Shown here: positions 2-64,000 of the stretch, piece after piece | Layout of the letters: the number at the start of each line of letters is the position of its first letter | Numbering within the stretch: position 1 is the stretch's first letter | Assembly: GCA_964374105.1 (NCBI GenBank) | Contig: CAYJXI010000001.1 | Location: 7,743 to 71,742 of the forward strand | Direction of reading: 5' to 3' | DNA length: 64,000 nucleotides | Source of the DNA: an uncultured Planctomycetales bacterium | GTDB taxonomy: Bacteria > Omnitrophota > Gorgyraeia > Zapsychrales > JANLHA01 | Position numbers and translations under genes: made by a program | The notes under the pieces: model-generated | The model's input: the letters and a program-made list of their open reading frames with translations, nothing else | What the model was told of the DNA's origin: nothing | Databases searched by the model: none

Positions 2-660
2 GGGAAGGTCGCTGTGGAGACTGCCGTCATCATCGCCGGGCTAATGCTGGTCAACAAACATCTGCACAATAGATATGCTTTACAATTCATTTCGCTCGCC
101 GCCTTGACGCTGGCCATCTCCTTGATCCTGCACGGCGGTAATGTGATAATTCAGTTTGGTCAATTTGGGGATGTGTTGATTTGGAGAGTCCTTTCCGTCT
201 TTACCGGCACATTGATTTCCAGCCTGCTTTATGAGAAAGACAAGACTTTAGGTCAAAAGATTCTCTCCTCAATCCGCTGGACAGCGGCCATCAGCATTTT
301 GAGCGGGTACTACTTGTACTTTACATTTATTCCGTTCATTGGCGAGAGCTTCTCTGTGGAACGTTTCGGGGCAATCGCTTCCTACCTCAAATCGGCCTTC
401 GACCTGACGATCGGAAGTTTATTAACGATTCCGTTACAGGTCGCCTTTGGCGCGGCTTTGGGTGAGAAAAAGAATATTGTGACCCAGTGGGAAGAATTCA
501 AGACAACCGTCATAACGATTTATCCCATCAACTTCCTCTTCTGGTATCCGATGATGGTCATTGGTTGGTCCTTGTTCCCGGATGCATTCATTTTCAAGAA
601 TTATCATGCGGTTTTGGTGACCTTCTGGATGGGCATCCTTTCCCGCATTGTTAAGGTGTC
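2..660 (+). other. Cluster of ~6-7 predicted transmembrane helices
   Basis: Hydrophobic stretches such as VAVETAVIIAGLMLV, LQFISLAALTLAISLIL, VLIWRVLSVFTGTLISSLL, AAISILSGYYLYFTFIPFIG, ITIYPINFLFWYPMMVIGWSLF, AVLVTFWMGIL. Confidence 0.6.
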
Positions 661-3600
661 ATTCGGACAGCTTAATATTCGCGGTTCTTCGGACAGAACA
701 AGGCATTCCCAGCCGGCGCCGTACAAACCGCTGGCAGAGCTTACCGCGGCTTATCGAGGCAAAGTCTTCGAGGGCCGAGCCGTTATTAAGGACAACGATG
801 TTGAGCTCATGATGGTGAAAGGCGTCAAGACCGCCGAACAAGAAAAGGCATTAAAAGACCTTTTTGCAAAGGTCGGGTATCTTTCCAAAGCCCCGCCGGT
901 TGTGGTCACTGCCGATTTCAAGAAGACTCAAGGTTCTATCGCTGCTTATAACGCCAAGACAAAAGTCCTTTACATCCACCTCGCTGTTCTCGACCAGCTC
1001 GCCCGAATCGCCAAGCTTGCCAATAACGAAAAAGAAATTTACCTTTTATTCCTCAAGGCTGTATTTGAGGGGCATGAAGAATTCCATATCCAGGGTGCCA
1101 ACGAAAAAGAGGCCCGTCAACGGACCTTAGAGTACCTTAGAAATTATGCCTTTACCCATGCGTCAGTCCTCAACCCATTCGATGCCACTCTGATTGTCTT
1201 GTCTAATCCGCAAATTTACGGCATCAAAGCTGAAAAGACATTTGCGAAGTCAATGTTGTCCATGGCTGGCCTCAAATCCCTCGAACCGGCTGAGTATATT
1301 AGAGAATTTGTCCAATACCTGTCGTGGTTACGGTTAAAGAAAGGCGGCGATAGTGCGGCTGCGATTCTGGGCAACTGGCTTAACTTTATCGATGAAGATA
1401 AACACAACCGACCGCCGGAAGCCCTAATCCATACCTTAAGACAGATTTTTGGTTTAAGCCAAGAGGTGATCGATAGTCTCATTGACCTATCCAAGGCGCA
1501 GTATCAGTTACCGGTGGTCGAAGGAATTAGCCCGCGCGGTCCGCCGTCTTATGAAGAACAGCTCTTAACAAGAAATATCTACGGTCAGCGAGATTCGAAA
1601 CACATTGAGCTCTATTTATCAAGGATCAAGACAATCAATGTTGCTGAACTTAAAAATTGGCTTACCAAGATGCTAAGGCAAAAGACCAAGGGCCGGGGAA
1701 AAGTCCTTAGCATTGTTATTTACGGCAGTTATCCTTACGGATTCCGCGTCAGTCCTTCTGACCTCGATATCGTTGCGGTCGTGGATGCGCCGTTAGCAAA
1801 AGAGACAAAGGACGCCTTGCCGACAACCTACCGCAACATTCCTCAGAAAATATTTAGTTCTGCTTATGCCCGCGATACTAAACATGCGGACGTGGTCTTT
1901 ATGACACCAGAGACGTTAAAACAGAGCGCCATGATAGGAACAAAGATTGCCCATGTCGGCATTGTCTTGCAGGGAGAAGGGCTCTTCGATATCGATATTC
2001 ATCGGCATTCGCTGGTCAATCGTTTGAGCTGGATTAAGTCCCTGCTAGAAAACGCAAGTTTCATGATCTCAGTGCGAGGTGCCAAGAACAAAAAGGGCGA
2101 GGAGATTAAAGACGAATATTTCTTAAGCAAGGCCATGCGCCGGATCCTTGAGGCCAACCTCCTTATCAAAGATATTGATGTGACTAAGGCTGTGCCGGAA
2201 AAGATTATCGATGAATACGTTGAAAATCTTGCCTATTACTTAGAAGGCGGCCTTGAGACCGAGGCCATGAGAAATCTGCTTCTAGGATTACAGGAAAGGA
2301 TAAGGGAAGCTTATCAGCAAGCGAGGATCACGGTCCTTAAGATCATTCTGGCGAACAAAGAGCGTCAGGAAAAACCAAAGGCGTCGTCCGCAAAACAAAC
2401 GACCAAGATAGTCTGGGATTATGAATTTAGAGGACAGATTACCCGGGATGATTTAGAGGATCAAAGCTATGCCTTCCGGAGAAGCGGGGCCGTTGATATT
2501 AAACTTGAGCGAATTACCCACGAGATCTTCTCAAGATTCAGAGAATTAGGTTTTGAATCTATTTACCTTAAAGAAACTACTTTTGAAGATAAGAGACCCA
2601 CTCTTATTATGGGCAATCATTGGTACGGCGTTTTAGAGTTTATATACCGGGAATTGAGAAAGAATATCGCTCATGCCTTTGCCAAAAAGGCGGAAAGTAT
2701 AGTGTTGCGTGTAGCCGTAAGAAGTATTAAGACACAGGATGAACAAGGACTTGAATTCGTTTTCGAAGACAATGGTGTGGGTTACAAACTGGATGAATCG
2801 ATCTTTAAGAAGAGCAAACGTCTAGGCAGGGGCTTTGGCCTGTTCTTAAGCAAATCTCTGATTTTAGCCAATGATATGGGTTCCTTCACCATCGAATCCC
2901 GCGGGAAGAGATATACGTTTGATTCAAGAAGGCCTGCTGAAACAGTTGAGGGAGATCTCACCGAAAGTGATTTTGTCAGCGGGATGCGGTTTACGCTGCG
3001 TCTCGTTAAACGCACCCTTCATGAACAAAAGGTGACTGTCCGTCTTCGTCCCGCAGACATTATGCGGGACTCCGCCGGACTATCCGCCGAAGCTAAAGAA
3101 GAAAGTCCTTTAGCGAAGGCGGATGTCGCCAATCCCGCCCGGGTGTCTTGGGAGAATATCCGCGCTGAATTAGAGACGCTTCATCCGGGAATCGCGGGGG
3201 TGAAGGAAGGGTATTTTGCCAGACTCTACCAGACCTTAAAAGAAACCTTGGCCTCGCTGGCTCAAAAGATCGATCAAGGAATCATTCATCCCGATCTCCT
3301 CATAAATACATCGGTCGGCGCAACCGAAAAGACCAAGATCACCGACCGACCCATCCGCGTCTTATTGCAGGGCTTCTCGGCCAATCCGATTCACTTAAGC
3401 CACATCGCCTTTGTCCTGATGGCCATGAATGCGCTTAACGCTGATTTAGCCGTGTATCTGGTGCATGGCGAGATCAAACACAAGACCTTGAAGGAAGATG
3501 AAATCGTTTTGGTTTCTGACCGCCACCAGATGGTTAAGGATTCAATTGAGGATATTCCCCTCATTCATTACACGGATGTTGGCTTAGATAACGCCGATGT

Positions 3601-6600
3601 CAGCGAATACAACATTCATCGATTACTGAACCTCAATCCGGATCAGAGAATTGAACTCATTGTCCTCTACAGCAGTGAAACAAAGACAAGGGCAGAATTC
3701 ATTGTAAGAAGCCTCTTAGAAGGGGCAAGACAATATAACTTTGGTGTCAATCCCCATCACCAGATTCATTTGGCGATGGTGCCGGTGGGGACATTTGGTA
3801 AAGAGGAGTTGACTGACGAGGTGCTGGCGAAGATGGTTGAAAAAGAATCCCTCCCCACCGATACATTCAAGATCACCTCATCTGTCATTCTCAAAGATTA
3901 TGCCCTCGAGGCCCATTCGGTTCAATATCGTCAGGGCAATCGTATGTTGGTCAGAAAAGTCGTGGATGATTTTGCCAAGGCCAAAGGCTATTACGGTTAT
4001 CCCAAAGAACGAAATGACAAGTCACAAGTTAACGGTACGATTCAACCGGAAAATCTGTCTGACGGACAGACAGGCCTTCCTTATCCCGCCATCCTTCCAA
4101 CAAGCAATGAACCTGATAGATCACCAATAAAAGAAGAATTAGAAACAATCCTCCCTGCCCTTGGCGGGCAAAAGGCCTTGGCCAAAAAGGGCCTAAGGAT
4201 GACAGATGATAATATCGTGATCAGCCCATCCTTAGCCGCACCGGCGGAGGTCAAGAACCGCATCCTCTTTGTCAATCCCAACATCCTGCGCGGCCCGCCG
4301 GTAGAGTTAAGAATTATCTTCGAAGGCCACGAACTCTTCCATCTCTTGGGCCATGACGAACAAGAAGCCCGCCGCCTGACCATTCGCTATCTTAAAGTTC
4401 ATAAACTTTTAGTTAGCCATATTGGATTCTTGGAGAACAACCGATTAGGCTTGATTGCCGACAAGGCATGGATTGACATATTGAAACAAACAGCGCAAAA
4501 GTCGATCGCCGTCATTCAAACGAATAGGCACGTCTCTGCCATTTATAACCGTTTCTTCGCCTCATTCCTAGAGTCGCCTTTTGCTCTCATTGTCGGACTT
4601 GTTTCCGGCCTTGTCATTCCCTATGGCATGACGTTCACTATGAGAAGGGTGTTTAGCAGTAAAAACGTATTTATGTGGGTTGCCGAGGGATTGGCTATTT
4701 TGACGTTTATTGCCTTGAATCTTTTCATCGTGTATTTGGTTAGTGCCAGCCTCTTTGATTTCATTCAAAACAAATTGCATAAGAAAATCTACAGCAAATA
4801 CGAGTCGAAATTCGATTTGGTAAGGGAGGGAATCACTTTGATGGCCTTGACCAGTGGCCTGTTGTTGACCATTGAGATTTTATACGGTGTACCTTTCTGG
4901 TTCTTAATTCTCACGGGTGTTTGGGGAATCCCGGTACTCATCTGGCAGCACCGCCGCGTTCTCTTGGAAATTATCAAGCAGGAAACGCCTCTAAGTCCGG
5001 TTCCTGCCCGCAGTCAAATCAAAGGCTTTGATTTAATTGAGCTTGTCATCGAAGATTTGCAAAACAAGAGAATCAGCGAAGAAGGGGCGGTGGAAGAACT
5101 GATGAGGATTGGCAGGGAGTTTGGCAAAGATGATCAAACCGTATGGGGTATGATTTCCATCCTGATGTTCGACCGTGGTTATCAGGTTGACTCGGAGTCG
5201 GTGCATTTGGCGGCGGTCAAGATTTTGGCCGGTCGCTTAACACCCGTGGCTAAAGAGGAAAGACAAGAGACGTTGATCATCCGCGGGCTCATCTCCGGAT
5301 ATCTCTTGAGTCCTTACATCAGCGTTCCTATGGCCATTGCCATGGCCTTAAATGCGATTCAAGACGATGAACTCATTAAGCAGGCGGTCAGGGAGGAGAA
5401 CGAAATCAAGAATATCGCTCGTCCCCCGCAGCATCGCTGGTTGATAAAGTTGAAAGAGAAGTTGATTCAGATTATCGATACCGGGTCGCAAGGGGTGAGG
5501 ACTTCCTTTGAATTATCCCAGGCCGTTCGGCTATTGGGATTAGTCGGTGAGCTTTTACGGTCAGTGAATTTGGCTGAGCCAGCGGGCGAGGTTCTATTAC
5601 AGCTAAAAGAATACCGCACCACAACGGCTGTCCGTTTAGGAAACGATTTTACGCAGAGCTTAGAACGGGAAATTCAAAAGTTGTCTGCTGAAAATTCACA
5701 AAAGAGGGAAGAGGCAGGCGACACCTATCCCGCCACCATGCCGGTAAGCAATGAACCTGATCGGGCGCCGACTCAGAAAGAGTTCGAACAGATTATTGCC
5801 TCGCTGGGCGGGCAAAAGGCCTTGGTCGAGAAGGGCATTACGATGGTTGTCAGCCATATCGTGATCAGCCCCTCCTTAGCCGCGCCGGCCGAGGTCAAGA
5901 ACGGCATCCTCTTTGTCAACCTCAACATCCTGCGCGGCCCGCCGTCCCAGAATCAAAAATCAAAAGAAGAATATGAGAAACAACTTAAAGTCATCTTCGA
6001 AGGCCACGAACTCTTCCATCTCTTAGGTCACAATGAAGCAGAAGCCCGCGACCTCACCGTTCAGTATCTTTTGACCCATTATCGGTTAACAGAGCATATC
6101 GAATTCCTAAAGAACAATAACCTTGGTTTGGTAGCCGAACAATCCTGGTTGTCTTTATTAGAGAAGGCCGTTTCTTATCCGAACCGCTCATTTGTCAACA
6201 AACTTATTGTTGTCTTAGTGTGGAGCTTACTGGGAGCAGGATTAATTGTGGGAGTTTACTTAACTGGTTATCTGAATTGGTACATTGCCTTGAAGCAATC
6301 TTTATTAGGGAAGACATTGTTGAGTTTACCTGTGGCTGGTTTGGATATATTAACCGGGGCTATCATCTGGGGAGTTGCTGATATCATCGGTCAATACTTA
6401 GCCAAACAAACATCCCGTATTGATTGGAGACAGACAGCCTTAGTGGCAGTGTTTGGTATTCTGGGTGGACTCGGAACACATATTCTGCTCAATATTCCTG
6501 ACGCCTTGTTGCCTGTCTTACAAAACAAATTACTTAATCAAATCTTCCGTGCCTTCGTGGTTCTTGTGGGTGGTTTGGCCTTAACGCTTGTGTTTACGAA

Positions 6601-57600: not shown

Positions 57601-60600
57601 TAGGAAACCTCTGGAAGCCATAACACAAAAGATTCAGGCGGTGTCAGGGAGTGAAATCAAAGATGAGGTCTTTGCGGTGGTCCTAAAGAAACTGGAAGAG
57701 ACCGTTAATAAGATAATGAAAGAAGCCCGTGAGGCAGATGATTCCTTGAGATCTTATGCAGTCTTGTTGTTGTTGGCTTACTTGGATCTTTCTGTTCGAA
57801 CGTTGAGAGCTGGCATGGGATTTGAACTTTCCCGCGACTACATTCCTTTCTTTGGTCAGTCGATAAATGGTCAATGGAAGATCGATGATCGAAAAACACC
57901 GCTTAAATTTGGCGTTGAACAGTTTAAGAAAGATTTCACAGGATTAAGAAATGCCTTGGCGGATTATGAAAAGGAACAACACCTGCATAAAGCTTCCAAT
58001 GAAACTTTGGGCGAGAGGATAAGAGACATTTTAAAAGAAGCGGATTCCTTCATGGCGGATGAATCCCGTTACAAGGATGGATTGATCCCTGACTTTAGGA
58101 CTGACATGGAAAGCCTGATTCTGCGTTATGCCGAACTCATCAATTGGGATAAAGAAAAACTCTTTACGGAATCAACCAAACGCTTGAACCTTCAGGTCCG
58201 GGCTTGGATCAGCCATTACACCGGAAATATCTTAAGGAATATGGGTGTGGAGAGGATCACCATCCGGCAGCTGTTTAGGTATAACGATTTAAGAGACCAA
58301 TTGTTCAAAGAAAAGGATTTAGATATCTTAGATGAGGACGAACAGCTTATATTCGATCAAAAGCGGCTCGCGCGGACAATTGTTAAACAGATGGAACAGC
58401 TGGATGAGTTTAAGGAATTGATTCGTTTTATTGATCGAATGAGCGAAAAAATGAAACAAAGGGCAGAAGAAGCGGATTATCCAGTTGTTCTCTTAGGTGG
58501 CCTGGAAGCTATCAAAGAAGATTCTATCGTGAATTCAGCCGCCGGCCTCCTTAAAGGTTATTTCAATAGCTCGGAGAGTGACATCAGGGCAAAACGAGTT
58601 GGGGAAGCGATTGCAATAGCCGCTTCCGTAAAGAGTGGTGCCTTTCACCTTATAGATAGAGGAAGTGATCCAGGAAAGCCTACGCAAGAAGTCCTTGACT
58701 CGGTGGATGCGGTCTTACCTGTCATCGAATTGGCAGAAAGGTATACCTCTTTGGATGATTCTTCGGATCCGAGGGCCGTGATTCTAAGAAACCTCGCTGA
58801 TTATCAGGCCATGGAGGATAACAAGCCTATCTATTCTCAGTGGAAGAGACATGAGTCCATGCTTATCATTAAACACAGAGATTATCCTAAGATTGATGAG
58901 AAGCCATATTTAGAAATTGCCTCTGGGTTTTATAACGCCTTGTACTTACCCACGCTCCTTAAATCCGATGAACGTAACATTATCTTTGTCGAGAAACATG
59001 CCTTTGTTCGAAGATACTTATCGAGGTTGATTGAGCTTTACAGTCTTCAAGATCGCCTCCAAGTCCATCATCCGGAAGTGGAGTATGGACCCGAGGCCAT
59101 AAGGACGTTTAGATTAAAAGAAGTCATTGGCAAAATGGGAGGGGTTCTACCCAACTGGCATCTGCAATTGGCTCGGGTACTTGCTTCTGGCGGAGAGATT
59201 ATCTTAGGGCTTGAACCTTGGGGCGAGAGAGAAGAACGATTGGCTCTCAAAGAGATTTACCGTCAATTGGGCGATAAACCAGAGGCGAAATTTATTAGAA
59301 CCATGTTTGAAGATCTGGTCAAGAAAGGGAACTTCACCTTAGAGATGGGGCATATGGATGAGAGGGGTGAGTTTGTTTCAACGATGTCAGGATATAAACG
59401 AGATGGTTTGCTGGATATAGAAACACTGCTTATCTTCCGAAAGCCCTATGTGAAGAAAGAGGCGACTCAAATTCCTCCTCAGAAAGGCTATTTTATTAAG
59501 GACGATCAATTGCAAGATGAGTTAAAGAAGATCTTCTCAGAGGAATTGACTTGGGTCCTTGAGCACAAGATCACCCAGCGTGTTAAAGAGAGAGTTCCGG
59601 TGAAAGAAATTGGGGAACTGCTGGGTAAGATTAATAAAGTTATTGAAAAATTAGAAACCATGCCTTCGAAGGCTGACCCCTCTGAAGCTTTTGAAGGGCT
59701 TCTCCTAATCATTACCGATTTATTTGCAAGACTCATAACAATGGGAGAGGGCTTAGAGACGCAAATCAGGCAGAAAGATTTGGTGAATGCTTTACTCACC
59801 CAGCCGGGCGGATTTGAGGGATTTAAAGTCACATTAGAGGATATTCAAGGAGAAAAAGTGAAGCGATATGAAGATCTTCTGTCAGAAGAAGACAGGAAGG
59901 TCTTAAGCAGTCCAGAAAATATCGAATACTTCAAAGGCCTGGCCCTGGTCATAGATATCGCCATGAATCTCATCAAGTTAAGAGGTCTAAGGGCAGGTTA
60001 TAAAACCCATTTCAATCAATATGAGGTGATGCTCGTCTTTGATTCGAAACAAAAAGATCACCGCTTAACCGATGAAACCCGCAATATCCCGCAACTAGAA
60101 ATCTTTAAGAAAGAAATGCAGGCGTTGCGAGATCGGTTGCAGGAGAAGATTGATCAATATCAAAAAATTCTTACCCTTGATGAAACGATTCATGAGATCT
60201 ACGGAGAGCTGATTGTTGAGATTAACACAATTTTGGCCTCGGTTGAATCTCTTAAGGAAGGTCAATCAGAAATCCTGACCCCTGCCTTAAGACTTAAAGT
60301 AGAGATCTTAATCAACCAACTTTCGATTGCAAACGGATGGGATATGACGATAATCTCCGAGAAACATCCCCAAGTCTCTAAATTTTATCTTAAGAGAAAT
60401 ACCGGATGGATTCATCATCACGTGGCGAATATCATCCGGGCGTTAGGGATTGAAGATCTTCGCCTTGCCCATCTTTTTGGCGGGCATGATGAACGGTCCT
60501 ACGTGGAATACGAAGAGAAAGAAACGCTAGCCCTCGATCCCGAAGTTTCCCTGATCATCCGCTTAAGAGGTCTTCATAAAGAGATTGTGCAACTGATGCA

Positions 60601-63600
60601 GGATATCGATGAAACAAAACAGATCGACGCATTTTTTACCAGCAGATTCAAATATAAAGATGACTCTCCTGATAAACCCTATGAAAAAGAATTGCAGGAA
60701 GAGAACATTGTGAAATTATTTACACACTTTGTCAAAGCCTATTTGAGTGTATTCCCTGACCGCAAAAGACAATCTTTTGAAGATGTTAATAGAAAATTAG
60801 CCTCACATGATCCCGCATACTTAACTGATCCAAAGGCCCTAGAGACTGACCAGATTGTGAGGAAAATCGGTTCCACCCAAATGAACCTCATCGGCTTGAT
60901 CGACAAGTACGAGACCGATCCTAAGGTAAGGGTCTTATTGAATAAGATGGCAGAGTACCTGGGCTTAAAGGACGGTTTGAGCCAAGGATTGCTGGAAAAA
61001 CACAAGCAGTTGATCTCGCTGAATTTTTATCCTGAACGACCGGAATTCAGCGACTATCCTTATGTTGAACTGATAGCAGGAATAAAGACAGTCCATTATC
61101 TCTTTTATCTTTTCAATATCCCAGAACTCTTAAAGATCAAGACTCGAAAGATTATCTTAAATCATCCTCATCGATTTGTAAGAATCTATCTTCAAGAAGC
61201 GATCAAGGCGATGAATAAACAAAACGAAGTTGAAATTACCTCCTTCTCCATAAATGAGTTCATCGAAAAATTCAAGTCTGAGTCCATCTCGACCTTAGTC
61301 ATGCGAGAAGGCTTAGAAAGATTGGGCGAGGTTCCACCGAATTTGCATCATATATTAAGCCAAATGATGATTCCGGGTGGTGAGATCATGGTGGCCGTGC
61401 ATTTAGATTACGCAAAACCCACCCCCATTCGGATGAAAGACATCTTAACTTCCGATGCATCCAAACAGGAAATAAGACTGATTCAGAATCTCCTCCATGA
61501 TTATGTCAAGGCAACCAATCCTTGGGAATTAGAATTCGGGTTTATGGATATTGAGAAAGAGGAATTTATCAAAGAACAATCCGGATATTCCCCTGGTCCC
61601 GACCTTGAATTATCCACTTGGGTGATCTTAAGGAAACCCTACCTCAAGAAAGAGATGCCCATTAAGGCCGAGGTCAAGGCTGAGGAACGCCTGAAGACAG
61701 AATTAAAAGCTATTTTTGAAGAAGAACTTACTGGGTTTCAAGAACATAAGATCACCAAACATCTCAAGATCATGGAAGTCCCGCCAGCGATCGTAAATCT
61801 GATAAAGCAGGTGAATCGGCTCATTGATCAAGTCATTCATCTTTCCGTTGAGAAAGCCCAACCTCAAACCTTTGTCGATATTATTTTTGAATTAATAAGT
61901 TTACAAGAGGAAATCGTTAAACAAGGGAAGAAATTTGAAAGACCTACGAAGGAATTAACCGGTGAGGCGAGAAAGAGAGCCTTGAAAGCCGCTGGCAAGG
62001 CAGAACAAAAGGGCAAGATCATGATAGTGGGAGAAAAGGAACCGTTTGTGGATTATCTGAAAGGGTATACCCTGCTTTTGACTGTTGTGTATCGCACCAT
62101 GATTTTAAGAAGTTTACGAGAAGGGTTAACCATACCTTCTCTCGGCCAAGACATTGTAACCATTCTCTGGCCATCTCAGCCGGTGCCTGCGGGAATTATC
62201 CCCTTAACGAGTCTGGTTGACTTTGAGAGAGAAATGAAGGCTTTACTTGAACATCTTAAGGCTCTAGAAGCCCGTCACCAGGAAAATGAAAGCCTCAATA
62301 AAACTATCGGCGAGGTCTATCGCGATCTTATGGGGGAAATAGAAAGATTGATTTCTGATCGAGAAGGATACGCAAACGGCTTAACTGCCAGTTATCAGAC
62401 CGAGCTAGAAATATTTCTCAACCGATTGGCTACCACGGTCAGATGGGATTATAACTCGTTCTCAAATTCTCATACGATTATCAGAAATCTGAAGGAGTAC
62501 AAGGCCCTGGCATGGATCCAGCATGATGTCGGCAATATCTTAAAGGTCATAGGAACAAAAGATCTGAGGATTTCCTTGTTCTTTATAATGTCCGATATGC
62601 GAGGCGCCTTATCTAAGGAGACAGGTCTTGTTTCCTTAGATAGAGAAGAGAGGTATTTCTTTGAGACGAGACAATTACAAGGAGAGATTGTTAAACTTTT
62701 GAGAAAACGACCTGAGGCACAAGGCTATCTTAATTATACCAATGAACACTTTAGAAAACATGAAGAATTCTCCTTTAGTGAGGAGGAAATGGAAGAGATC
62801 ATTTCAGAAATCCAGGTGGCGACTTTGGGTGATTTCCTTAAACTGTACGATTCCCAGGTCAAGAAACCTGATCAAGCTCAATTTATTCAATCTCATATGA
62901 GGATTCTCGCTGACAAAATAGGGCCTTGGGTGATGGGAACCTTAGAACCGGATATAGATTTATTTATTAAAGCGATGAAAGAATTATTGAATCTGCTTGA
63001 TCATCTTCAGTCCATTGAGGAGGCCAAACAACTGATAAAGCTTTTAGCCCGATACCAGGGGATTGTAGACATCTATGATGGTTATATTCCCAATGTGCCG
63101 CGGCGAATCATTCCTGCCATCGTTCATCATCCTCAGGTGCAGGCGTTCCCGATTGTCGAAATCGCTCCCGGGGTAGAGGGGATTTCATATCTGGTTTCCA
63201 TGAAGGCATTACAGAACCGAAAGTTCATCCTGATTCAAAACAATCTATTTGTGAGGGAGTATCTTAAGACAGCCGTTGAGGTCTTAGAGATGGAATCCCA
63301 AGTCGAAGTCAAAGAGACCGAACTTAAAGATCTTACCAAAGACTTTGAGAAAGAAAGTATTTCAACGGTAAGAATCAAAGAAGGGGCGTTGGATTATAGC
63401 CAGTTGCCAGAAGATTGGTATAAGTCATTGACAGAACTTGTTACTAAAAACGGTCATATCCAGATTGCCTTTAAACCCAGAGATCAAGGGGCTAAGCATA
63501 TTCAATTATCTCATCTGGCTTCTATCTTTGGGAATATTCCGGAAGTCCAATTGGTTTTGAAACTTCACCGCGATCTAGTGAAAGTCAAACAATGGAAGTT

Positions 63601-64000
63601 TATGTATGGCCGCCTGGACCGCGATCAAGGATTTGTCCATGAGAAGATGGGGATTGTGAAAGAAGGATGGCCGTATTTAGAGACATTGTTTATCTTTATC
63701 AAACCAGAACAAGAAAAAGAACAAGTAAAAGCATCCGAAGAAGTTGAAGAAAGGGCTGAAGAAGAAGCGCAAGAGCAAGAAGAAATTATCAAGCCTCTGA
63801 TCCTGACAATTCCTATCTCTGAATTGAATTATCCAGCAGAGATTCTCAAAGGCGATAAAGATGCCCTCTCTTTAGGACTTTTTGAATTTTTAAGTGTTCA
63901 GTTTAATAAGATCAAAGAAACGGATGAAGAAAGCAAAGTCGTCGTTAGATTAAAGGCCAATAAGAAAGGTCCCATGATCGCCGCAGAAACCCTCGGCTTA
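2..64000 (+). CDS. Internal fragment of a single giant ORF (>=21,333 codons, partial at both ends) encoding a membrane-anchored multidomain megaprotein
   Basis: Manual codon-by-codon translation in the phase starting at nt 2 found no stop codon across the window. Recognisable protein motifs stay in this phase throughout (GalE, J-domain, PP2C, Udk and others). The supplied ORF track lists no + strand ORF in this phase, which is the expected result if the phase is never interrupted. Every listed track ORF is antisense or out of phase. Confidence 0.85.
758..1140 (+). other. HExxH zincin-like module, family A copy 1 (…APPVVVTADFKKTQGSIAAYN…LYIHLAVLD…FEGHEEFHIQG…EARQRTLEYL)
   Basis: HEEFH encoded at 1073-1087. 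The same module architecture recurs at 6947-7330 and 9953-10345. Confidence 0.5.
1680..2050 (+). other. Pol-beta-type (minimal) nucleotidyltransferase-like domain
   Basis: Motif VIYGSYPYGFRVSPSDLDIVAVVD (G-S at 1724-1729, then 10 residues, then D-L-D at 1760-1768) fits the hG[GS]x9-13Dh[DE]h signature. Confidence 0.45.
2500..2935 (+). other. GHKL / histidine-kinase-like ATPase (HATPase_c-like) domain
   Basis: FEDNGVGY (2764-2784) followed by GRGFGLFLSKSLI and GSFTIES…G.RYTF resembles the N, G1 and G2 boxes of HATPase_c. Confidence 0.45.
3350..3990 (+). other. HxGH nucleotidyltransferase-like (NadD/cytidylyltransferase-like) domain, copy 0
   Basis: RVLLQGFSANPIHLSHIAFVL aligns to the GGTFDPxHxGHL motif. 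Its architecture parallels the domains at 47470-48075 and 48305-48900. Confidence 0.4.
4140..4400 (+). other. HExxH zincin-like module, family A' copy 1 (…VISPSLAAPAEVKNRILFVNPNILRGPP…IFEGHELFHLLGHDEQEARRLTIRYL)
   Basis: HELFH encoded at 4327-4341. Near-identical peptide and DNA copy at 5795-6080. Confidence 0.5.
4577..4960 (+). other. Cluster of ~4 transmembrane helices
   Basis: FALIVGLVSGLVIPYGMTF, FMWVAEGLAILTFIALNLFIVYLVSASLF, ITLMALTSGLLLTIEILYGVPFWFLILTGVWGIPVLIW. Confidence 0.6.
5795..6080 (+). other. HExxH zincin-like module, family A' copy 2
   Basis: ASLGGQKALVEKG…VISPSLAAPAEVKNGILFVNLNILRGPP…VIFEGHELFHLLGHNEAEARDLTVQYL, with HELFH encoded at 6005-6019. Confidence 0.5.
6180..6800 (+). 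other. Cluster of ~6 transmembrane helices
   Basis: LIVVLVWSLLGAGLIVGVYLTGYL, LPVAGLDILTGAIIWGVADIIG, ALVAVFGILGGLGTHILL, IFRAFVVLVGGLALTLVF, LLAPLKTFVVINLLPVAARVI. Confidence 0.6.
6947..7330 (+). other. HExxH zincin-like module, family A copy 2
   Basis: …APPVVVTSDFGKTEGSITAYNPAEGILYIHLFVLDKL…VIEGHERFHVEGANEADARLKTIEYL, with HERFH encoded at 7265-7279. Confidence 0.5.
7199..7234. repeat. Two tandem copies of the 13-bp palindrome GGTGACAGTCACC (7202-7214 and 7219-7231), flanked by AAA…TTT
   Basis: Directly read: aaaGGTGACAGTCACCaaaaGGTGACAGTCACCttt. Copy 1 is translated as G-D-S-H and copy 2 as V-T-V-T, so the same DNA word is used in two codon phases. Confidence 0.9.
7720..8560 (+). other. 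Uridine kinase / phosphoribulokinase-family P-loop kinase-like domain
   Basis: Walker A ISGEGGGGKSS (7742-7765). IIFDDYIL aligns to the Udk D.YY motif. IIIVEGILTLFDENLAKDERVISMFVDAHFEARLLRMLIRF matches the Udk core VIILEGILLL…FVD…RL.RRI.RD. Confidence 0.55.
9953..10345 (+). other. HExxH zincin-like module, family A copy 3
   Basis: …APPVIITSDFDKTRGSIAAYNSAEGVLYIHLFVFDKL…VIEGHERFHIEG…QKTIQYL, with HERFH encoded at 10280-10294. Confidence 0.5.
10560..10960 (+). other. Possible Rossmann-fold (class I methyltransferase-like) domain
   Basis: GKTIMLVGINSN (beta1 plus loop), IIVVNPD (acidic end of beta2), VDLIFSSGLFNE (post-II motif). Confidence 0.3.
11015..11073. repeat. Cluster of three GC-rich palindromes in a G/P/R-rich linker
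   Basis: AGTGACAGTCACT (11015-11027), CCCGCCaaGGCGGG (11028-11041), and a perfect 20-bp palindrome CCTGCCTGCCGGCAGGCAGG (11050-11069). Confidence 0.85.
11218..11355 (+). other. Two transmembrane helices
   Basis: ALPSIFKFLAKMAGVLAIQIVGMGGGNIGVVLVITTLTFIVLWGG. Confidence 0.55.
15921..16340 (+). other. Family B module, copy 1 (PTATRSGEPLS…LREYLKLKVGQFSSYA…RKIRAGPN…GIDLLAFN…IIHPEL…HETAAVLGFSH)
   Basis: Conserved ~145-aa module present four times (here, 30415, 34341 and 39343). Motif HETAAVLGFSH encoded at 16265-16297. Confidence 0.5.
16545..16590. repeat. Three adjacent GC-rich palindromes
   Basis: CCCGCCATGGCGGG (16545-16558, perfect 14-mer), GCGGGGTTAACCCCGC (16566-16581, perfect 16-mer), CCGCCaaaGGCGG (16578-16590). 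Confidence 0.85.
17160..17700. repeat. GC-rich repetitive insert encoding a P/G/A/R-rich low-complexity linker
   Basis: ~29-bp direct repeats ttgaagcctccgcgccaatcttccgtgcc and ttgaagccttcgctccaatctcccgtggc. Inverted repeats ccatgaacc…ggttcatgg and ccccgta…tacgggg. The cacaagtcacaag motif. Local GC far above the flanking sequence. Confidence 0.8.
17547..17670. repeat. Tandem direct repeat of three 40-bp units (gtcaGCCCGCCccggtcttcgcaactGGCGGGCcggggag), each with an internal 7-bp inverted repeat
   Basis: Units at 17547-17586, 17587-17626 and 17627-17666, with 2-3 mismatches between units. The unit length is not a multiple of 3, so each copy is translated in a different phase (SQPALVFATGGPGR / SARPGLRNWRAGEV / SPPRSSQLAGRGS) without a stop. 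Confidence 0.9.
17710..17890 (+). other. Pair of transmembrane helices; the first has a PEP-CTERM-like layout (FAP, hydrophobic helix, KAKNR)
   Basis: SFAPIVIVGLGIATVVIIMTIKAKNRL and FLSIATLMAVVGSLWTIWI. Confidence 0.5.
17917..18009. repeat. ~90-bp triple-hairpin element, copy 1
   Basis: ccctcccccttgtggggaggg (8-bp stem); gggagggggtga…tcaccctcccc; cccctccatcaatggagggg. Second copy at 52237-52329 in the same codon phase, translated LDSLPLVGRVREGV…QSSPSPSPSHQ. Confidence 0.85.
20412..20930 (+). other. Possible ChaN / TraB / Tiki-superfamily domain
   Basis: VVFLGETEHFSSTDKYLVARSLKELKTLGITHLALE resembles the ChaN vLLGEqHdn motif. The C-terminal LLVINGNAHSNYQ resembles the GnaH motif. Confidence 0.3.
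21275..21326. repeat. 12-bp tandem duplication (aggtcaaaggtg x2) followed by the palindromes GGTGACTGTCACC (21295-21307) and GGTGACAGTCACC (21311-21323)
   Basis: Directly read. Translated …KVRSKVTVTFGDSHLW. The two copies of the palindrome are used in two phases (VTVT, then GDSH). Confidence 0.9.
22343..23460 (+). repeat. Partial upstream copy (R1) of the ~3.4-kb repeat unit; strongly purine-rich segment with G-ending codons; contains an HExxH (HELLH at 22691-22705)
   Basis: 22346-22670 is ~85-90% identical to 23467-23790 at the DNA level (EGGVMLGSGRGLSAVQEKMV…KHLYLDERE…). The plus strand here is almost entirely G/A-rich, which explains the long antisense ORFs in the track. Confidence 0.8.
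23461..26880 (+). repeat. ~3.4-kb repeat unit R2: an HExxH module (HEMGH at 23810-23824) through to a C-terminal J-domain
   Basis: Co-linear with R3 at the protein level along its whole length (…HEMxHL.NP…GGLKI…RKFLLPRKAE…DHAIDYALAL…VLRREIY…NYYAILGV…YHPDR…). Confidence 0.8.
26429..26630 (+). other. J-domain (DnaJ N-terminal domain-like), copy 1
   Basis: NYYAILGVPMKATPLMIDRSFKALSFLYHPDRAQPSEKAKAEEEFKRINEAYQALSDPQRRKEYDE has the HPD tripeptide and the canonical spacing. E. coli DnaJ itself reads YHPDRN. Confidence 0.75.
26881..30290 (+). repeat. ~3.4-kb repeat unit R3: an HExxH module (HEMLH at 27227-27241) through to a C-terminal J-domain
   Basis: Protein-level co-linearity with R2. The DNA has diverged, so this is not a recent duplication. 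Confidence 0.8.
29835..30030 (+). other. J-domain, copy 2
   Basis: NYYVILGVPRQATSKDIDRSFKALAMLYHPDRAPEPERAQAHQEFKVINEAYQVLSDAEKRQDYEN. Confidence 0.75.
30415..30860 (+). other. Family B module, copy 2
   Basis: STATRSGEPMSEEQ…RKIRAGPVEIF…GIDLLAFNYEGWIVIHPEL…LIHETGAVYGLKH (encoded at 30761-30793). Confidence 0.5.
31800..32250 (+). other. GNAT-fold N-acetyltransferase-like domain
   Basis: …LAIYVEPRYQGLGIGRTLMGLALRIARQLGVKEFSL… The R/Q.xGxG/A motif A with a downstream helix is typical of GNAT. Confidence 0.45.
33084..33115. repeat. Perfect 32-bp palindrome AGGTAGGGGCACGGCATGCCGTGCCCCTACCT
   Basis: Directly read and reverse-complemented. It lies in frame and encodes VEVGARHAVPLPLT. Confidence 0.9.
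33372..33510 (+). other. Helix-turn-helix motif resembling the IS3-family transposase N-terminal HTH (HTH_Tnp_1-like)
   Basis: RKGITEERFLEVALNHLEDENPRETIALELGINIQTVSYWLKKLGL, compared with the PF01527 pattern …EEFK.EAV.L…G.SV.EVARELGVS.STLYRWVK…. Confidence 0.4.
34341..34790 (+). other. Family B module, copy 3
   Basis: PTATRSGEPLSEEQKRQLREYLKLKVGQFSSYA…ILAHETGAIYGLEH (encoded at 34688-34720). The DNA is ~80% identical to copy 1 over the N-terminal ~100 nt. Confidence 0.5.
36302..36510 (+). other. Two transmembrane helices; the first is a PEP-CTERM-like anchor (FEPL, then a hydrophobic helix, then TRW)
   Basis: AAFEPLTFIALLAGFGILGVYMTRW and LGTMGLAAFAPLLTCCSLIPG. Confidence 0.5.
36530..37360 (+). 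other. Possible TraB / Tiki / ChaN-superfamily domain, second copy
   Basis: N-terminal LILIGMEHN… and C-terminal YFLIGFNHVKKIEEALG resemble the paired G.aH motifs of TraB/PrgY. Confidence 0.3.
39343..39790 (+). other. Family B module, copy 4
   Basis: STATRSGEPLTEEKERQLRQYLKLKVKDFSGYG…ILAHETGAIFGLPH (encoded at 39689-39721). Confidence 0.5.
39890..40700 (+). other. Ribulose-phosphate 3-epimerase family (TIM-barrel) -like domain
   Basis: NAIHFDVQQKEG (compare HvDvMDG), PIEVHLMYWQP (compare ldvHLMvenP), LIRTLGIRAGIALSL (compare lIkelGakaGvvlNP), ADAILLSAVMEGTRGGTFDS (compare vDlVLlMsVnPGFgGQkF), IHIQGGINKETIGIAASGGATAFVSGTFV (compare ieVDGGin.e.i.elaeAGAdvfVaGSaiF). Confidence 0.65.
40778..41815 (+). 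other. galE-like: UDP-glucose 4-epimerase (GalE) / NAD-dependent epimerase-dehydratase-like domain
   Basis: VLVTGGAGYIAAGVIHDLL (GxxGxxG Rossmann), VFASSAGVYSG, NPYGETKYLMERL (catalytic YxxxK), FVALRFFNVAGA, IRDYIHLLDLADAH. Co-linear with E. coli GalE over ~330 aa. Confidence 0.8.
42330..42700 (+). other. PEP-CTERM-like anchor (YEPL, hydrophobic helix, KKRW) plus a further ~3 transmembrane helices
   Basis: YEPLVMLVLLAGVGILGIYKKRWFAKR; VLLLTITTFLVPFPTFYLSPLFLPGWMMMPAIIIPVAIVTIINFLATVSL. Confidence 0.5.
43480..44000 (+). other. Possible HEAT / PBS-lyase-like alpha-helical repeats
   Basis: Repeated ~30-aa units with DxDVR..A…LG motifs (DEDVRLSSIESLGRI; DVRREALKGILVIL). Confidence 0.25.
44950..45735 (+). 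other. PP2C-family Ser/Thr protein phosphatase-like domain
   Basis: AIADGHGKRGAE (motif 1 DGHGG), GGTTLSVAYI, AAFIGDSLIWIRNRDG (GDSR), MMSRSLGDKNF, FMVVGSDGI. Confidence 0.65.
45880..45907. repeat. GGTGACTGTCACC palindrome (45880-45892) followed by a degenerate second copy GGCGATAATCACC, flanked by AAA…TTTTT
   Basis: Directly read; translated KVTVTQGDNHLF. Confidence 0.85.
45950..46200 (+). other. HExxH zincin-like module (HEFLH at 46124-46138)
   Basis: …HHYQITLIGVSGDVEIYLLFHEFLHVYLEE… follows the same aromatic…LY.h…HExxH layout as family A. Confidence 0.35.
47470..48075 (+). other. HxGH nucleotidyltransferase (NadD / NMNAT-like) domain, copy 1
   Basis: VAVFPVAGNPLHWAHILIG (compare FGGTFDPVHYGHL), VVGADHY (compare IIGxDsl), ASSSMARSGN (compare ISATIIRERL.NG). 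Confidence 0.5.
48305..48900 (+). other. HxGH nucleotidyltransferase-like domain, copy 2 (H-motif degenerate: NPISLGDL)
   Basis: IAVFPISGNPISLGDLIVALG…YIAGAEHY…ASARQARKGD is co-linear with copy 1 but has lost both motif histidines. Confidence 0.45.
49660..51420 (+). other. GT35 alpha-glucan / glycogen phosphorylase-like domain
   Basis: N-terminal LSLEAFLPELKGEAQMSLASGGLGFLTGETW (compare FSMEyGL…YSGGLGvLAGDhlKSA). C-terminal TREASGTSDQRAALNGHYNIATATGGPLAYI (compare EASGTSNMKfaLNGALTIGT.DGANVE). The expected PLP-binding Lys position reads Arg. Confidence 0.55.
51440..51670. repeat. GC-rich repetitive linker: (aagtcac)n heptamer run, gcccgcc…ggcgggc hairpins, and GGTGACAGTCACC at 51653-51665
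   Basis: aagtcacaagtcacaagtcagaagtca; ccggcccgccaatcacaagagccggggcgggc; translated KSQVTSQKSS…PRPANHKSRGGQDRQVTGHMSDD…EGDSHLPS. Confidence 0.85.
52237..52329. repeat. ~90-bp triple-hairpin element, copy 2
   Basis: Near-identical to 17917-18009 (about 5 mismatches) and in the same codon phase. Confidence 0.85.
53930..54480 (+). other. Rossmann / class I methyltransferase-like module of repeat unit 1
   Basis: ILQPGIEAS (motif I-like), FTIVEND (acidic end of beta2), ESISTLRI, LIAKGGDIQIAL (motif III LkpGG-like), LFIFTKPYP. Confidence 0.35.
56760..57440 (+). other. Rossmann / methyltransferase-like module of repeat unit 2
   Basis: YVDLETGFDGL, FILTDNPLFVTEYLKK, ESIGSLRIRR, LVEGGQMIIDF, VVIITFTK. 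Confidence 0.35.
58890..59460 (+). other. Rossmann / methyltransferase-like module of repeat unit 3
   Basis: YLEIASGFYNAL, IIFVEKHAFVRRYL, LASGGEIILGL, LLIFRKPYVKKE. Confidence 0.35.
61060..61650 (+). other. Rossmann / methyltransferase-like module of repeat unit 4
   Basis: YVELIAGIKT, IILNHPHRFVRIYL, ESISTLVMRE, MIPGGEIMVAV, WVILRKPYLKKE. Confidence 0.35.
63150..63720 (+). other. Rossmann / methyltransferase-like module of repeat unit 5
   Basis: IVEIAPGVEGISYL, FILIQNNLFVREYLK, ESISTVRIKE, VTKNGHIQIAF, LFIFIKPEQEKE. Confidence 0.35.

Follow-up and report, generated by a model that had tools for sequence, protein, structure and literature searches.

A 64-kb stop-free window, very probably from within a giant bacterial gene for a multi-enzyme, membrane-anchored protein

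RESULTS

One reading frame spans the whole window

We analyzed a 64,000-nucleotide (nt) stretch of contig CAYJXI010000001.1, here called the window, which is occupied over its full length by a single open reading frame (ORF) of 21,333 sense codons (frame +2, nt 2 to 64000). Six-frame translation of the 64-kb window found no TAA, TAG, or TGA codon in this frame. An earlier reading made from the letters without database searches (the sequence-only reading) had claimed as much and had described the ORF as leaving the window at both edges; an in-frame stop was sought and none was found, and both ends are indeed open. The remaining five frames contain 1,653, 1,368, 893, 921, and 1,491 stops, with longest stop-free runs of 139 to 210 codons. 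The longest start-to-stop ORF outside frame +2 encodes 203 amino acids (aa) (nt 39080 to 39691, minus strand), exactly the upper limit that had been given for the other frames. At a stop density of 4 to 8%, an open run of 21,333 codons would arise by chance with a probability of about e^-1000. Stop codon reassignment is irrelevant here, as all three stop codons are absent from frame +2.

The coding signal is uniform along the frame. In 4-kb blocks, the frequency of G is 0.31 to 0.37 at codon position 1 and 0.11 to 0.18 at codon position 2, constant throughout, and the GC content is steady at 0.41 to 0.47. Domains recognized by Pfam and NCBIfam lie in phase with frame +2 from the first to the last kilobases, in agreement with the motifs that the sequence-only reading had picked out along the same length. 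Internal paralogues (described below) have ratios of nonsynonymous to synonymous substitution (dN/dS) of 0.10 to 0.29 by the Nei-Gojobori method, with high dS, which indicates purifying selection on the protein encoded in frame +2 since the duplications.

Features expected of gene boundaries or RNA genes were also searched for. An Rfam scan of the window found no RNA families, and ARAGORN found no tRNA or transfer-messenger RNA genes. Within nt 1 to 60000, promoter-like sites (26/28/25 versus 26.9/28.3/30.2 expected) and terminator-like sites (28/19/16 versus 20.4/21.0/20.4 expected) occur at about the level of shuffled sequence. Shine-Dalgarno-like motifs before ATG or GTG are not enriched (4.8% in frame versus 5.3% out of frame). 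The earlier statement that the window holds no RNA gene, terminator, or pattern of ribosome-binding site plus start therefore stands. Stop-free and uniform coding, in-phase domains, and purifying selection on the paralogues likewise support its proposal that all of the window belongs to a single gene. We consider it highly probable that the window comes from inside one real, translated giant bacterial gene with 21,333 codons or more, of the multi-enzyme, membrane-anchored type.

An alternative hypothesis is that the frame is an assembly artifact, a chimera in which the assembler fused several shorter long genes (paralogues or strain variants) in frame, in which case no single gene would be this long. 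Splitting and local misassembly have been reported for such genes (West-Roberts et al. 2023, bioRxiv 10.1101/2023.11.21.568195), the protein contains repeated modules, and the sequence is absent from the collections that could have served as a check: an exact 50-mer (nt 21 to 70) had no match in GTDB representative genomes, JGI metagenome contigs, or IMG/VR, and residues 1 to 1200 had no homologue at an E value of ≤1e-3 in a search of 5.8 billion proteins. The repeats, however, are old and have diverged in DNA; in self-comparison, the best nucleotide matches reach 81% identity over 346 nt and 90% identity over 110 nt, and none is both long and near-identical, which leaves little scope for repeat-driven misassembly. 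Composition and codon bias are uniform, every chimeric join that kept the frame free of stops would have to fall in homologous in-phase sequence, and the joining of two long genes would still imply very long genes. We find an artifact of this kind barely credible.

Divergent enzyme domains are scattered along the chain

Recognized domains are sparse, covering about one-sixth (~17%) of the chain by Pfam and NCBIfam. Their coordinates and scores are collected in Table 1, together with the other features of the window; residue r corresponds to nt 3r-1 to 3r+1. The UDP-glucose 4-epimerase (GalE) keeps the Rossmann motif GGAGYIA, the serine motif SSAGVY, and YGETK (YxxxK), and the PP2C-type protein phosphatase keeps the DGHG, GDS, GSDG, and DN.TA motifs. 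DnaJ domains, two of which are present here, are not mentioned in the main texts of the two papers on giant proteins that are compared in the discussion section.

The ribulose-phosphate 3-epimerase-like domain scored under the cutoff of the NCBIfam rpe model, as did the P-loop kinase half-domain with the NCBIfam uridine kinase model (E = 2e-10). The first nucleotidyltransferase-like domain (residues 1119 to 1211) gave weak matches to NCBIfam nicotinate mononucleotide adenylyltransferase models, and the nucleotidyltransferase-like tandem pair, which is distant kin of residues 1059 to 1230, matched nicotinate mononucleotide adenylyltransferase weakly in two stretches (E = 1.2e-9). The GT-B region aligned with model positions 12 to 593 of the 600 in TIGR02094 (E = 2e-26, under the cutoff) and with Glyco_transf_5 (PF08323; E = 2e-7, 31.2 bits versus a cutoff of 22.7), while the matches to Phosphorylase and to Glycos_transf_1 (PF00534; E = 7e-4) were weak.

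A single marginal match to HEAT/HEAT_2 (E = 0.004 and 0.027) lay below the cutoff. Pfam gave no SecA match at an E value of ≤0.1 in the slice; such a domain could lie beyond the window. Dockerin, TSP3, lectin, NHL, WD, and TPR repeats were not detected in the slice by Pfam, nor were a glycoside hydrolase, a lytic transglycosylase, an adhesin repeat, or a recognized protease domain.

Table 1 Features of the 64-kb window, with positions in nucleotides of the window and residues of the frame +2 translation
Feature	Nucleotides	Residues	Strand	Evidence and remarks
Single continuous frame, 21,333 codons	2-64000		+	Open at both window edges; very probably internal to a giant gene
TM-like cluster 1	74-460	25-153	+	Hydropathy scan
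TM-like clusters		1521-1647, 2068-2249, 3755-3785, 5911-5960, 6449-6467, 6728-6797	+	Hydropathy scan
TM-like clusters		7069-7087, 7350-7368, 12098-12166, 14113-14225	+	Hydropathy scan
HATPase_c-like	2642-2920	881-973	+	PF02518, E = 2e-4, 22.2 bits vs cutoff 26.4, sub-threshold
Cytidylyl/NMN-adenylyltransferase-like	3356-3634	1119-1211	+	CTP_transf_like, E = 9e-5, 23.1 bits vs cutoff 21
GGTGAC-N-GTCACC double palindrome	7198-7235		.	Inverted-repeat scan; more copies at nt 21291-21327, 45880-45892, 51653-51665
Uridine-kinase/PRK-like P-loop kinase, C-terminal half only	8324-8629	2775-2876	+	Pfam PRK, E = 9e-7, 29.3 bits vs cutoff 22
Cys pairs	~11804-36490 (all eight pairs)	3935/3936, 4078/4081, 4468/4471, 5140/5142	+	
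Cys pairs	~11804-36490 (all eight pairs)	5581/5584, 6791/6794, 7057/7059, 12162/12163	+	
R3 orphan domain, copies 1-4, ~170 aa	15878-16384, 30398-30991, 34325-34798, 39299-39925		+	Self-BLAST, 44-68% identity
GC-rich 40-nt unit, 3.1 copies	17547-17671		+	Tandem Repeats Finder, period 40, 96% matches
ChaN/Tiki superfamily	within 20312-20821	6823-6940	+	Cofac_haem_bdg, E = 1.2e-10, 42.2 bits vs cutoff 27.7
Tandem segmental duplication, ~1,150 aa	23357-30322	7786-8964 + 8916-10107	+	30-56% identity; a J-domain ends each copy
J-domain 1	26429-26623	8810-8874	+	Pfam DnaJ, E = 1.5e-19; HPD intact
J-domain 2	29834-30028	9945-10009	+	Pfam DnaJ, E = 2.6e-16; HPD intact
GNAT acetyltransferase	31895-32206	10632-10735	+	Acetyltransf_1 (PF00583), E = 7e-7, 30 bits vs cutoff 20.7
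Ribulose-phosphate 3-epimerase-like	40058-40687	13353-13562	+	Ribul_P_3_epim, E = 3e-17, 63 bits vs cutoff 21.1
GalE, UDP-glucose 4-epimerase	40790-41788	13597-13929	+	TIGR01179, 311.8 bits vs cutoff 262.3, E = 4e-93
PP2C-type protein phosphatase	44900-45784	14967-15261	+	Pfam PP2C, E = 1.2e-7, 32 bits vs cutoff 20.3
Nucleotidyltransferase-like tandem pair	47207-48904	15736-16022 + 16019-16301	+	Self-BLAST, 38% identity
GT-B glycan enzyme region	49706-51376	16569-17125	+	Resembles alpha-glucan phosphorylase, starch synthase GT5, GT1
Five tandem diverged modules, ~700-790 aa	52415-64000		+	25-35% identity, phmmer and alignment; array leaves the window end
Module limits	52415-54775, 55376-57499, 57500-59470, 59531-61702, 61712-64000		+	phmmer and alignment

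Internal duplication and methyltransferase-fold modules

The gene has grown partly through internal segmental duplication, followed by divergence under purifying selection. Besides the long tandem duplication that carries the J-domains, self-BLAST identified three copies of a unit of ~230 aa (R1). Each of the five tandem modules at the downstream end of the window consists of an orphan helical domain of ~460 aa and then a class-I methyltransferase-fold domain. An AlphaFold (AF2) model of one module (predicted local distance difference test score [pLDDT], 72.9; predicted template modeling score, 0.70) has the same layout, with helices over ~460 aa and then an alpha/beta domain. A Foldseek search of this model against the PDB gave 124 matches at an E value of ≤1e-3, and the best 50 are essentially all S-adenosylmethionine (SAM)-dependent methyltransferases.

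Cysteine is nearly absent and always paired

Only 16 of the 21,333 residues are cysteine, versus ~274 expected from the codon-position base frequencies. All 16 form eight pairs (CC, CxC, or CxxC), the last of which ends at residue 12,163, and the final 9,170 residues are free of cysteine. Among 200,000 permutations, the number of paired cysteines never exceeded four. Cysteine depletion recurs in several other long proteins (0 in 7,439 aa, 0 in 3,117 aa, 3 in 6,369 aa, and 5 in 5,940 aa) but without the pairing, and still other long proteins are not depleted. Cysteine is unmentioned in both key papers on giant proteins (West-Roberts et al. 2023; Nielsen & Lui 2026).

Hydrophobic segments and a possible topology

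A Kyte-Doolittle scan (19-residue window, mean of ≥1.7) marked 30 windows, about 25 of them distinct, which amounts to ~25 to 30 hydrophobic, transmembrane (TM)-like segments covering ~2 to 3% of the residues. Such a scan is crude and locates hydrophobic segments, not topology. The segments gather in clusters separated by TM-free stretches of up to ~7,100 residues.

We suggest, tentatively, that the protein serves as a multi-enzyme scaffold that is tethered to the membrane and faces largely the cytoplasm. Helical hairpins would fasten the polypeptide in the cytoplasmic membrane, and the long TM-free stretches, with their ATP-, CTP-, SAM-, or acetyl coenzyme A (acetyl-CoA)-using domains, would face the cytoplasm. 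The HPD-bearing J-domains may recruit DnaK for the folding of the huge nascent chain, and short loops or domains behind signal-like hydrophobic segments, such as ChaN/Tiki, could be exposed outside. A cytoplasmic placement is proposed because these enzyme families need cytoplasmic cosubstrates. Kinases and nucleotidyltransferases use ATP, CTP, or nicotinamide mononucleotide, GNAT enzymes use acetyl-CoA, and the methyltransferase fold uses SAM; the substrates of GT-B enzymes and GalE are nucleotide sugars or glucans, and J-domains have a cytoplasmic Hsp70 partner.

The original "Archaeovorin" proposal is a different one, namely, an extracellular predation or attachment machine whose chain lies mostly outside the cell and binds and digests the wall of a prey or host cell. 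This is the published reading of the class, drawn from extracellular localization predicted by TMHMM and from glycan-active domains (West-Roberts et al. 2023), and parts of the slice are compatible with it: the ChaN/Tiki domain stands behind a signal-like segment, and cysteine is scarce and confined to vicinal pairs, where avoidance of unpaired thiols would suit an extracytoplasmic protein. The enzymes of the slice nevertheless need cytoplasmic cosubstrates, and its J-domains would act on cytoplasmic Hsp70. Pfam detected no glycoside hydrolase, lytic transglycosylase, dockerin, lectin, or adhesin repeat in the slice, and some of the predicted localizations are "highly unlikely" according to West-Roberts et al. 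themselves. An extracellular machine thus appears unlikely to us, and the cytoplasm-facing scaffold is the arrangement that we carry forward.

An orphan domain, signal-like segments, and the possibility of a polyprotein

Four copies of a further repeated domain, R3, are dispersed along the chain; in an alignment, the later copies are 50 to 56% identical to the first. They share the invariant motifs TATRSGEP, RAGP, LLAFN, HPEL, and HET.A..G..H, with TATRSGEP at the N-terminal edge. A sub-threshold Matrixin match coincides with HET.A..G..H (E = 3e-4; Pfam M10, 21.1 bits versus a cutoff of 24). Classification of R3 as a metzincin or other zincin was not supported: the motif reads HET[GA]A..G..H, the second His of HExxH is replaced in all four copies, and there is no significant fold match.

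R3 had no relatives at an E value of ≤1e-3 in a word-indexed search of 5.8 billion proteins and none in JGI metagenome contigs, and its best match among PDB sequences was not significant (E = 0.2). One of five AF2 models of R3 was confident, and the model searched (pLDDT, 79.7) had no significant Foldseek match (best E = 0.26); the nonsignificant fold matches include the minimal metallopeptidases selecase and jannalysin as well as BlaR1. A likeness seen by eye to two stand-alone proteins, P0002 and P0004, was unsupported, as a hidden Markov model search of 40 proteins gave an E value of only 0.05. R3 is best called an orphan domain.

Two segments that resemble export signals were found by eye. 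The first joins a Tat-like SRRKVFK to a hydrophobic segment and CTGC (residues 6771 to 6797, nt 20312 to 20392; SRRKVFKWIGLTAVAIVLNCTGC) and is followed by the ChaN/Tiki domain. The second (nt 36413 to 36499; M-HRRGFIKLSLG...LLTCC; MHRRGFIKLSLGTMGLAAFAPLLTCC) looks like the N terminus of a lipoprotein precursor. A TM helix and a basic loop precede each of the two. The second segment opens with an ATG in frame +2, which resembles the start of a former gene taken up into the longer frame. A second "ChaN-like" domain, thought to follow the signal-like segment at residue 12138, was rejected, having no Pfam match at an E value of ≤0.1 and no BLASTP similarity to the first.

It could be hypothesized from such features that the gene encodes a polyprotein, one chain from a "stop-less operon" that is cut after translation into many proteins, some of them exported, by R3 or by peptidases encoded elsewhere in the gene. 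Gene-like cassettes with Tat- or lipoprotein-like signals are embedded in the chain, and stand-alone proteins of 371 to 1,210 aa, with N termini that are signal-peptide-like by eye, carry the methyltransferase-like domain as well. Cleavage by C39 or S8 domains has been raised as possible for giants of this class (West-Roberts et al. 2023, bioRxiv 10.1101/2023.11.21.568195). With four copies, each bearing the invariant 8-residue motif at its N-terminal edge, R3 might serve as the cutter, and the sub-threshold Matrixin match and the nonsignificant fold matches to selecase, jannalysin, and BlaR1 point in the same direction. The replaced histidine, the nonsignificant Foldseek and PDB profile matches, and the single confident model, however, all speak against a peptidase role for R3, and Pfam found no recognized protease domain in the slice. 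The second cassette lacks its supposed ChaN-like cargo, and internal signals of ribosome binding plus start are not enriched. We regard a polyprotein as very unlikely. Under this reading, dozens of once-independent genes would have been fused in one frame, and proteolysis, perhaps at TATRSGEP beside R3, would yield many separate cytoplasmic and exported proteins. If this were true, the near-ban on cysteine would be a design rule that allows folding and handling without disulfide mispairing. A single multi-enzyme chain remains our preferred reading.

Repeated DNA elements sit in the frame

A 13-nt palindrome, GGTGAC-N-GTCACC, occurs in six exact copies versus 0.04 expected, and two of the sites are 38-nt double palindromes. 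The copies fall in different codon phases (encoding GDSH or VTVT), which indicates an element at the DNA or RNA level that sits in the frame. The palindrome is absent from the five PP2C-related loci described below. Each copy of the GC-rich 40-nt unit is likewise in another codon phase, and the three copies make up 120 nt, by which the frame is restored; the array looks like an inserted DNA repeat that has been tolerated for leaving the ORF intact. As a group, the palindromic and tandem elements look like DNA-level insertions that are tolerated only if they preserve the frame, which is indirect evidence of selection on the frame.

Two other elements were noted. A perfect GC-rich palindrome of 32 nt occupies nt 33084 to 33115, within the coding frame (AGGTAGGGGCACGGCA followed by TGCCGTGCCCCTACCT). 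A 110-nt segment at nt 17899 to 18008 recurs with 90% identity 34 kb away, at nt 52219 to 52328, and encodes LDSLPLVGRVREGV..SSPSPSPSHQ. The dN/dS of this segment is ~1.05, versus 0.10 to 0.29 for all other internal paralogues, which suggests a recent neutral copy at the DNA level or gene conversion.

Relatives are mostly single domains in other very long ORFs

Most of the protein has no detectable relative, and the kin that were found are mostly single domains in other very long ORFs. A profile of the module, compared with 1.84 billion representatives in a full HMMER scan, matched 32 proteins, all at the methyltransferase-like part; the helical part had no relatives among these representatives. 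About half of the 32 are 1,500 to 7,556 aa long, and one is a partial protein labeled "Candidatus Omnitrophota bacterium" at NCBI. The methyltransferase-like domain is C-terminal in the stand-alone proteins P0002 (1,210 aa), P0004 (881 aa), and P0003 (371 aa). These are ordinary-sized counterparts of the giant's pieces and, judging by eye from their N termini, are apparently secreted.

Residues 12501 to 17400 matched two of 5.8 billion proteins, both in the PP2C domain only (32 to 36% identity). Both are fragments that fill their contigs, one of 5,940 aa (Elusimicrobia) and one of 4,004 aa (Omnitrophota). A PP2C alignment searched against 185,579 species genomes found five loci. In four of them, labeled as an Omnitrophota single-amplified genome and as Elusimicrobia, Planctomycetales, and Planctomycetia metagenome-assembled genomes (MAGs), the PP2C domain lies in an ORF of 4,011 to >6,369 aa, and three of these ORFs leave the fetched locus; the fifth is an ordinary 299-aa PP2C of Oceanospirillum. 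The long ORFs include one of >5,388 aa in the Elusimicrobia MAG RA.bin80 (187-kb contig) and one of >6,369 aa in the Planctomycetia MAG (19-kb contig). Fragments of giant genes are thus also present in MAGs that are not labeled Omnitrophota. When the whole slice was compared with the fetched long proteins and loci by BLASTP and tblastn, each shared only a single domain with it.

Altogether, the labels of the domain relatives are Omnitrophota (2 records), Elusimicrobia (2), Planctomycetales/Planctomycetia (2), and Oceanospirillum (1). From these labels, the host is probably an Omnitrophota bacterium or a close relative in the Planctomycetes-Verrucomicrobia-Chlamydiae (PVC) group.

DISCUSSION

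Two recent surveys provide the background against which this gene can be placed. West-Roberts et al. (2023, bioRxiv 10.1101/2023.11.21.568195) described 46 Omnitrophota genes of >90 kb, which encode up to 85,804 aa with numerous TM regions and very divergent domains, and divided them into two types, "Archaeovorin" and dockerin-rich. The Archaeovorin type (type sequence, the Velamenicoccus archaeovorus giant protein) is 30,000 aa or longer and carries glycosyltransferases (GT5 and GT1), methyltransferases, GNAT, peptidases, NUDIX, and HEAT; HEAT is the most frequent domain, and SecA DEAD/preprotein-binding domains are present in most members. Nielsen & Lui (2026, bioRxiv 10.64898/2026.06.07.730766) listed 3,650 proteins with 10,000 aa or more, 348 of which reach 30,000 aa or more, with a maximum of 147,155 aa. 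In that corpus, TM helices account for ~2% of residues (with a mean of 22 helices in Omnitrophota proteins of at least 10,000 aa), 80% of clusters are singletons, and repeats are old, their nucleotide identity dissolved. Three classes were distinguished, the first being "multi-enzyme metabolic clusters," and the commonest Pfams include PF08323, PF00534, PF00583, PF02518, and methyltransferases. The judgment of the sequence-only reading that such a gene is very rare and unusual therefore holds per genome, but not for the public record, where one corpus alone documents thousands of these proteins.

Several points weigh against our interpretation of the window as part of a translated, membrane-anchored, multi-enzyme giant. 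SecA-DEAD and the C39 peptidase, which are typical of full-length giants, are not in the slice, and HEAT is only marginal (E = 0.004). The absence of the sequence from the searched collections leaves the assembly without a cross-check. Topology was read from a simple hydropathy scan, so that placing the enzyme domains in the cytoplasm is our inference, and most domains of the published giants were predicted to be extracellular, although the authors themselves doubted those predictions (West-Roberts et al. 2023, bioRxiv 10.1101/2023.11.21.568195). The taxonomy relies on the labels of distant domain relatives (22 to 37% identity), some of which are not Omnitrophota, and the window contains no marker or flanking genes.

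The function, topology, folding, and processing of giant genes of this class are little understood, and only one of them has any expression evidence. Such genes were already known to occur, chiefly in Omnitrophota-like bacteria, and the slice does not alter that view. It adds a very divergent example with HPD J-domains, a GalE above its cutoff, a motif-complete PP2C, signal-like cassettes, the five-fold module and the four-copy R3 domain, for which few or no relatives were found, and an unusual cysteine pattern. The intact HPD motifs of the J-domains suggest that recruitment of DnaK may be built into the chain.

Very long single ORFs made of repeated modules are also familiar from the megasynthases of nonribosomal peptide synthetase (NRPS) and polyketide synthase (PKS) pathways and from giant repeat adhesins. 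Either identity was ruled out for this gene, as Pfam and NCBIfam found no defining domain. The slice differs from an NRPS or PKS in having no condensation, adenylation, ketosynthase, or acyl/peptidyl carrier domain and from giant adhesins in having no Ig-like, cadherin, or RTX repeats; its modules are heterogeneous enzymes rather than an assembly line or a stalk. It is also unlike the dockerin and tandem-repeat-scaffold giants, in that no unit other than the five-fold methyltransferase-fold module is present in high copy number.

The likeness to the Archaeovorin type is closer. The slice shares with it a stop-free gene of tens of kilobases, many scattered TM segments, long unannotated stretches, and highly divergent GT5/GT1-like, methyltransferase-fold, GNAT, and sugar metabolism domains, with no dockerin or TSP3. 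In contrast to that type, it has no SecA-DEAD, C39/S8 peptidase, NUDIX, or glycoside hydrolase domain and at most a marginal HEAT, and it does have J-domains and a PP2C that the main text of West-Roberts et al. does not mention. The published length is at least 30,000 aa, whereas the gene here is known as at least 21,333 codons and is open at both edges. Sequence similarity to any public giant is confined to single domains.

Like the long proteins of Omnitrophota as a general class (at least 10,000 aa), the slice has a single ORF of at least 30 kb (64 kb in this case), and its hydrophobic segments make up ~2 to 3% of residues versus the published ~2%. It closely resembles the first class of Nielsen & Lui, described for the Omnitrophota class Gorgyraeia, in which many distinct Pfams tile the chain and none is dominant. 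PF08323, PF00534, PF00583, and PF02518 recur here, TM segments make up ~2%, the duplications are old, and the chain is unique in sequence; the methyltransferase is present only as a fold. The scarcity of homologues matches a class in which 80% of clusters are singletons. The five-fold module of helical and methyltransferase-fold domains and the R3 domain are not described for that class. The slice is a very divergent example of the already cataloged multi-enzyme giants of the Omnitrophota and PVC bacteria and not a new kind of gene.

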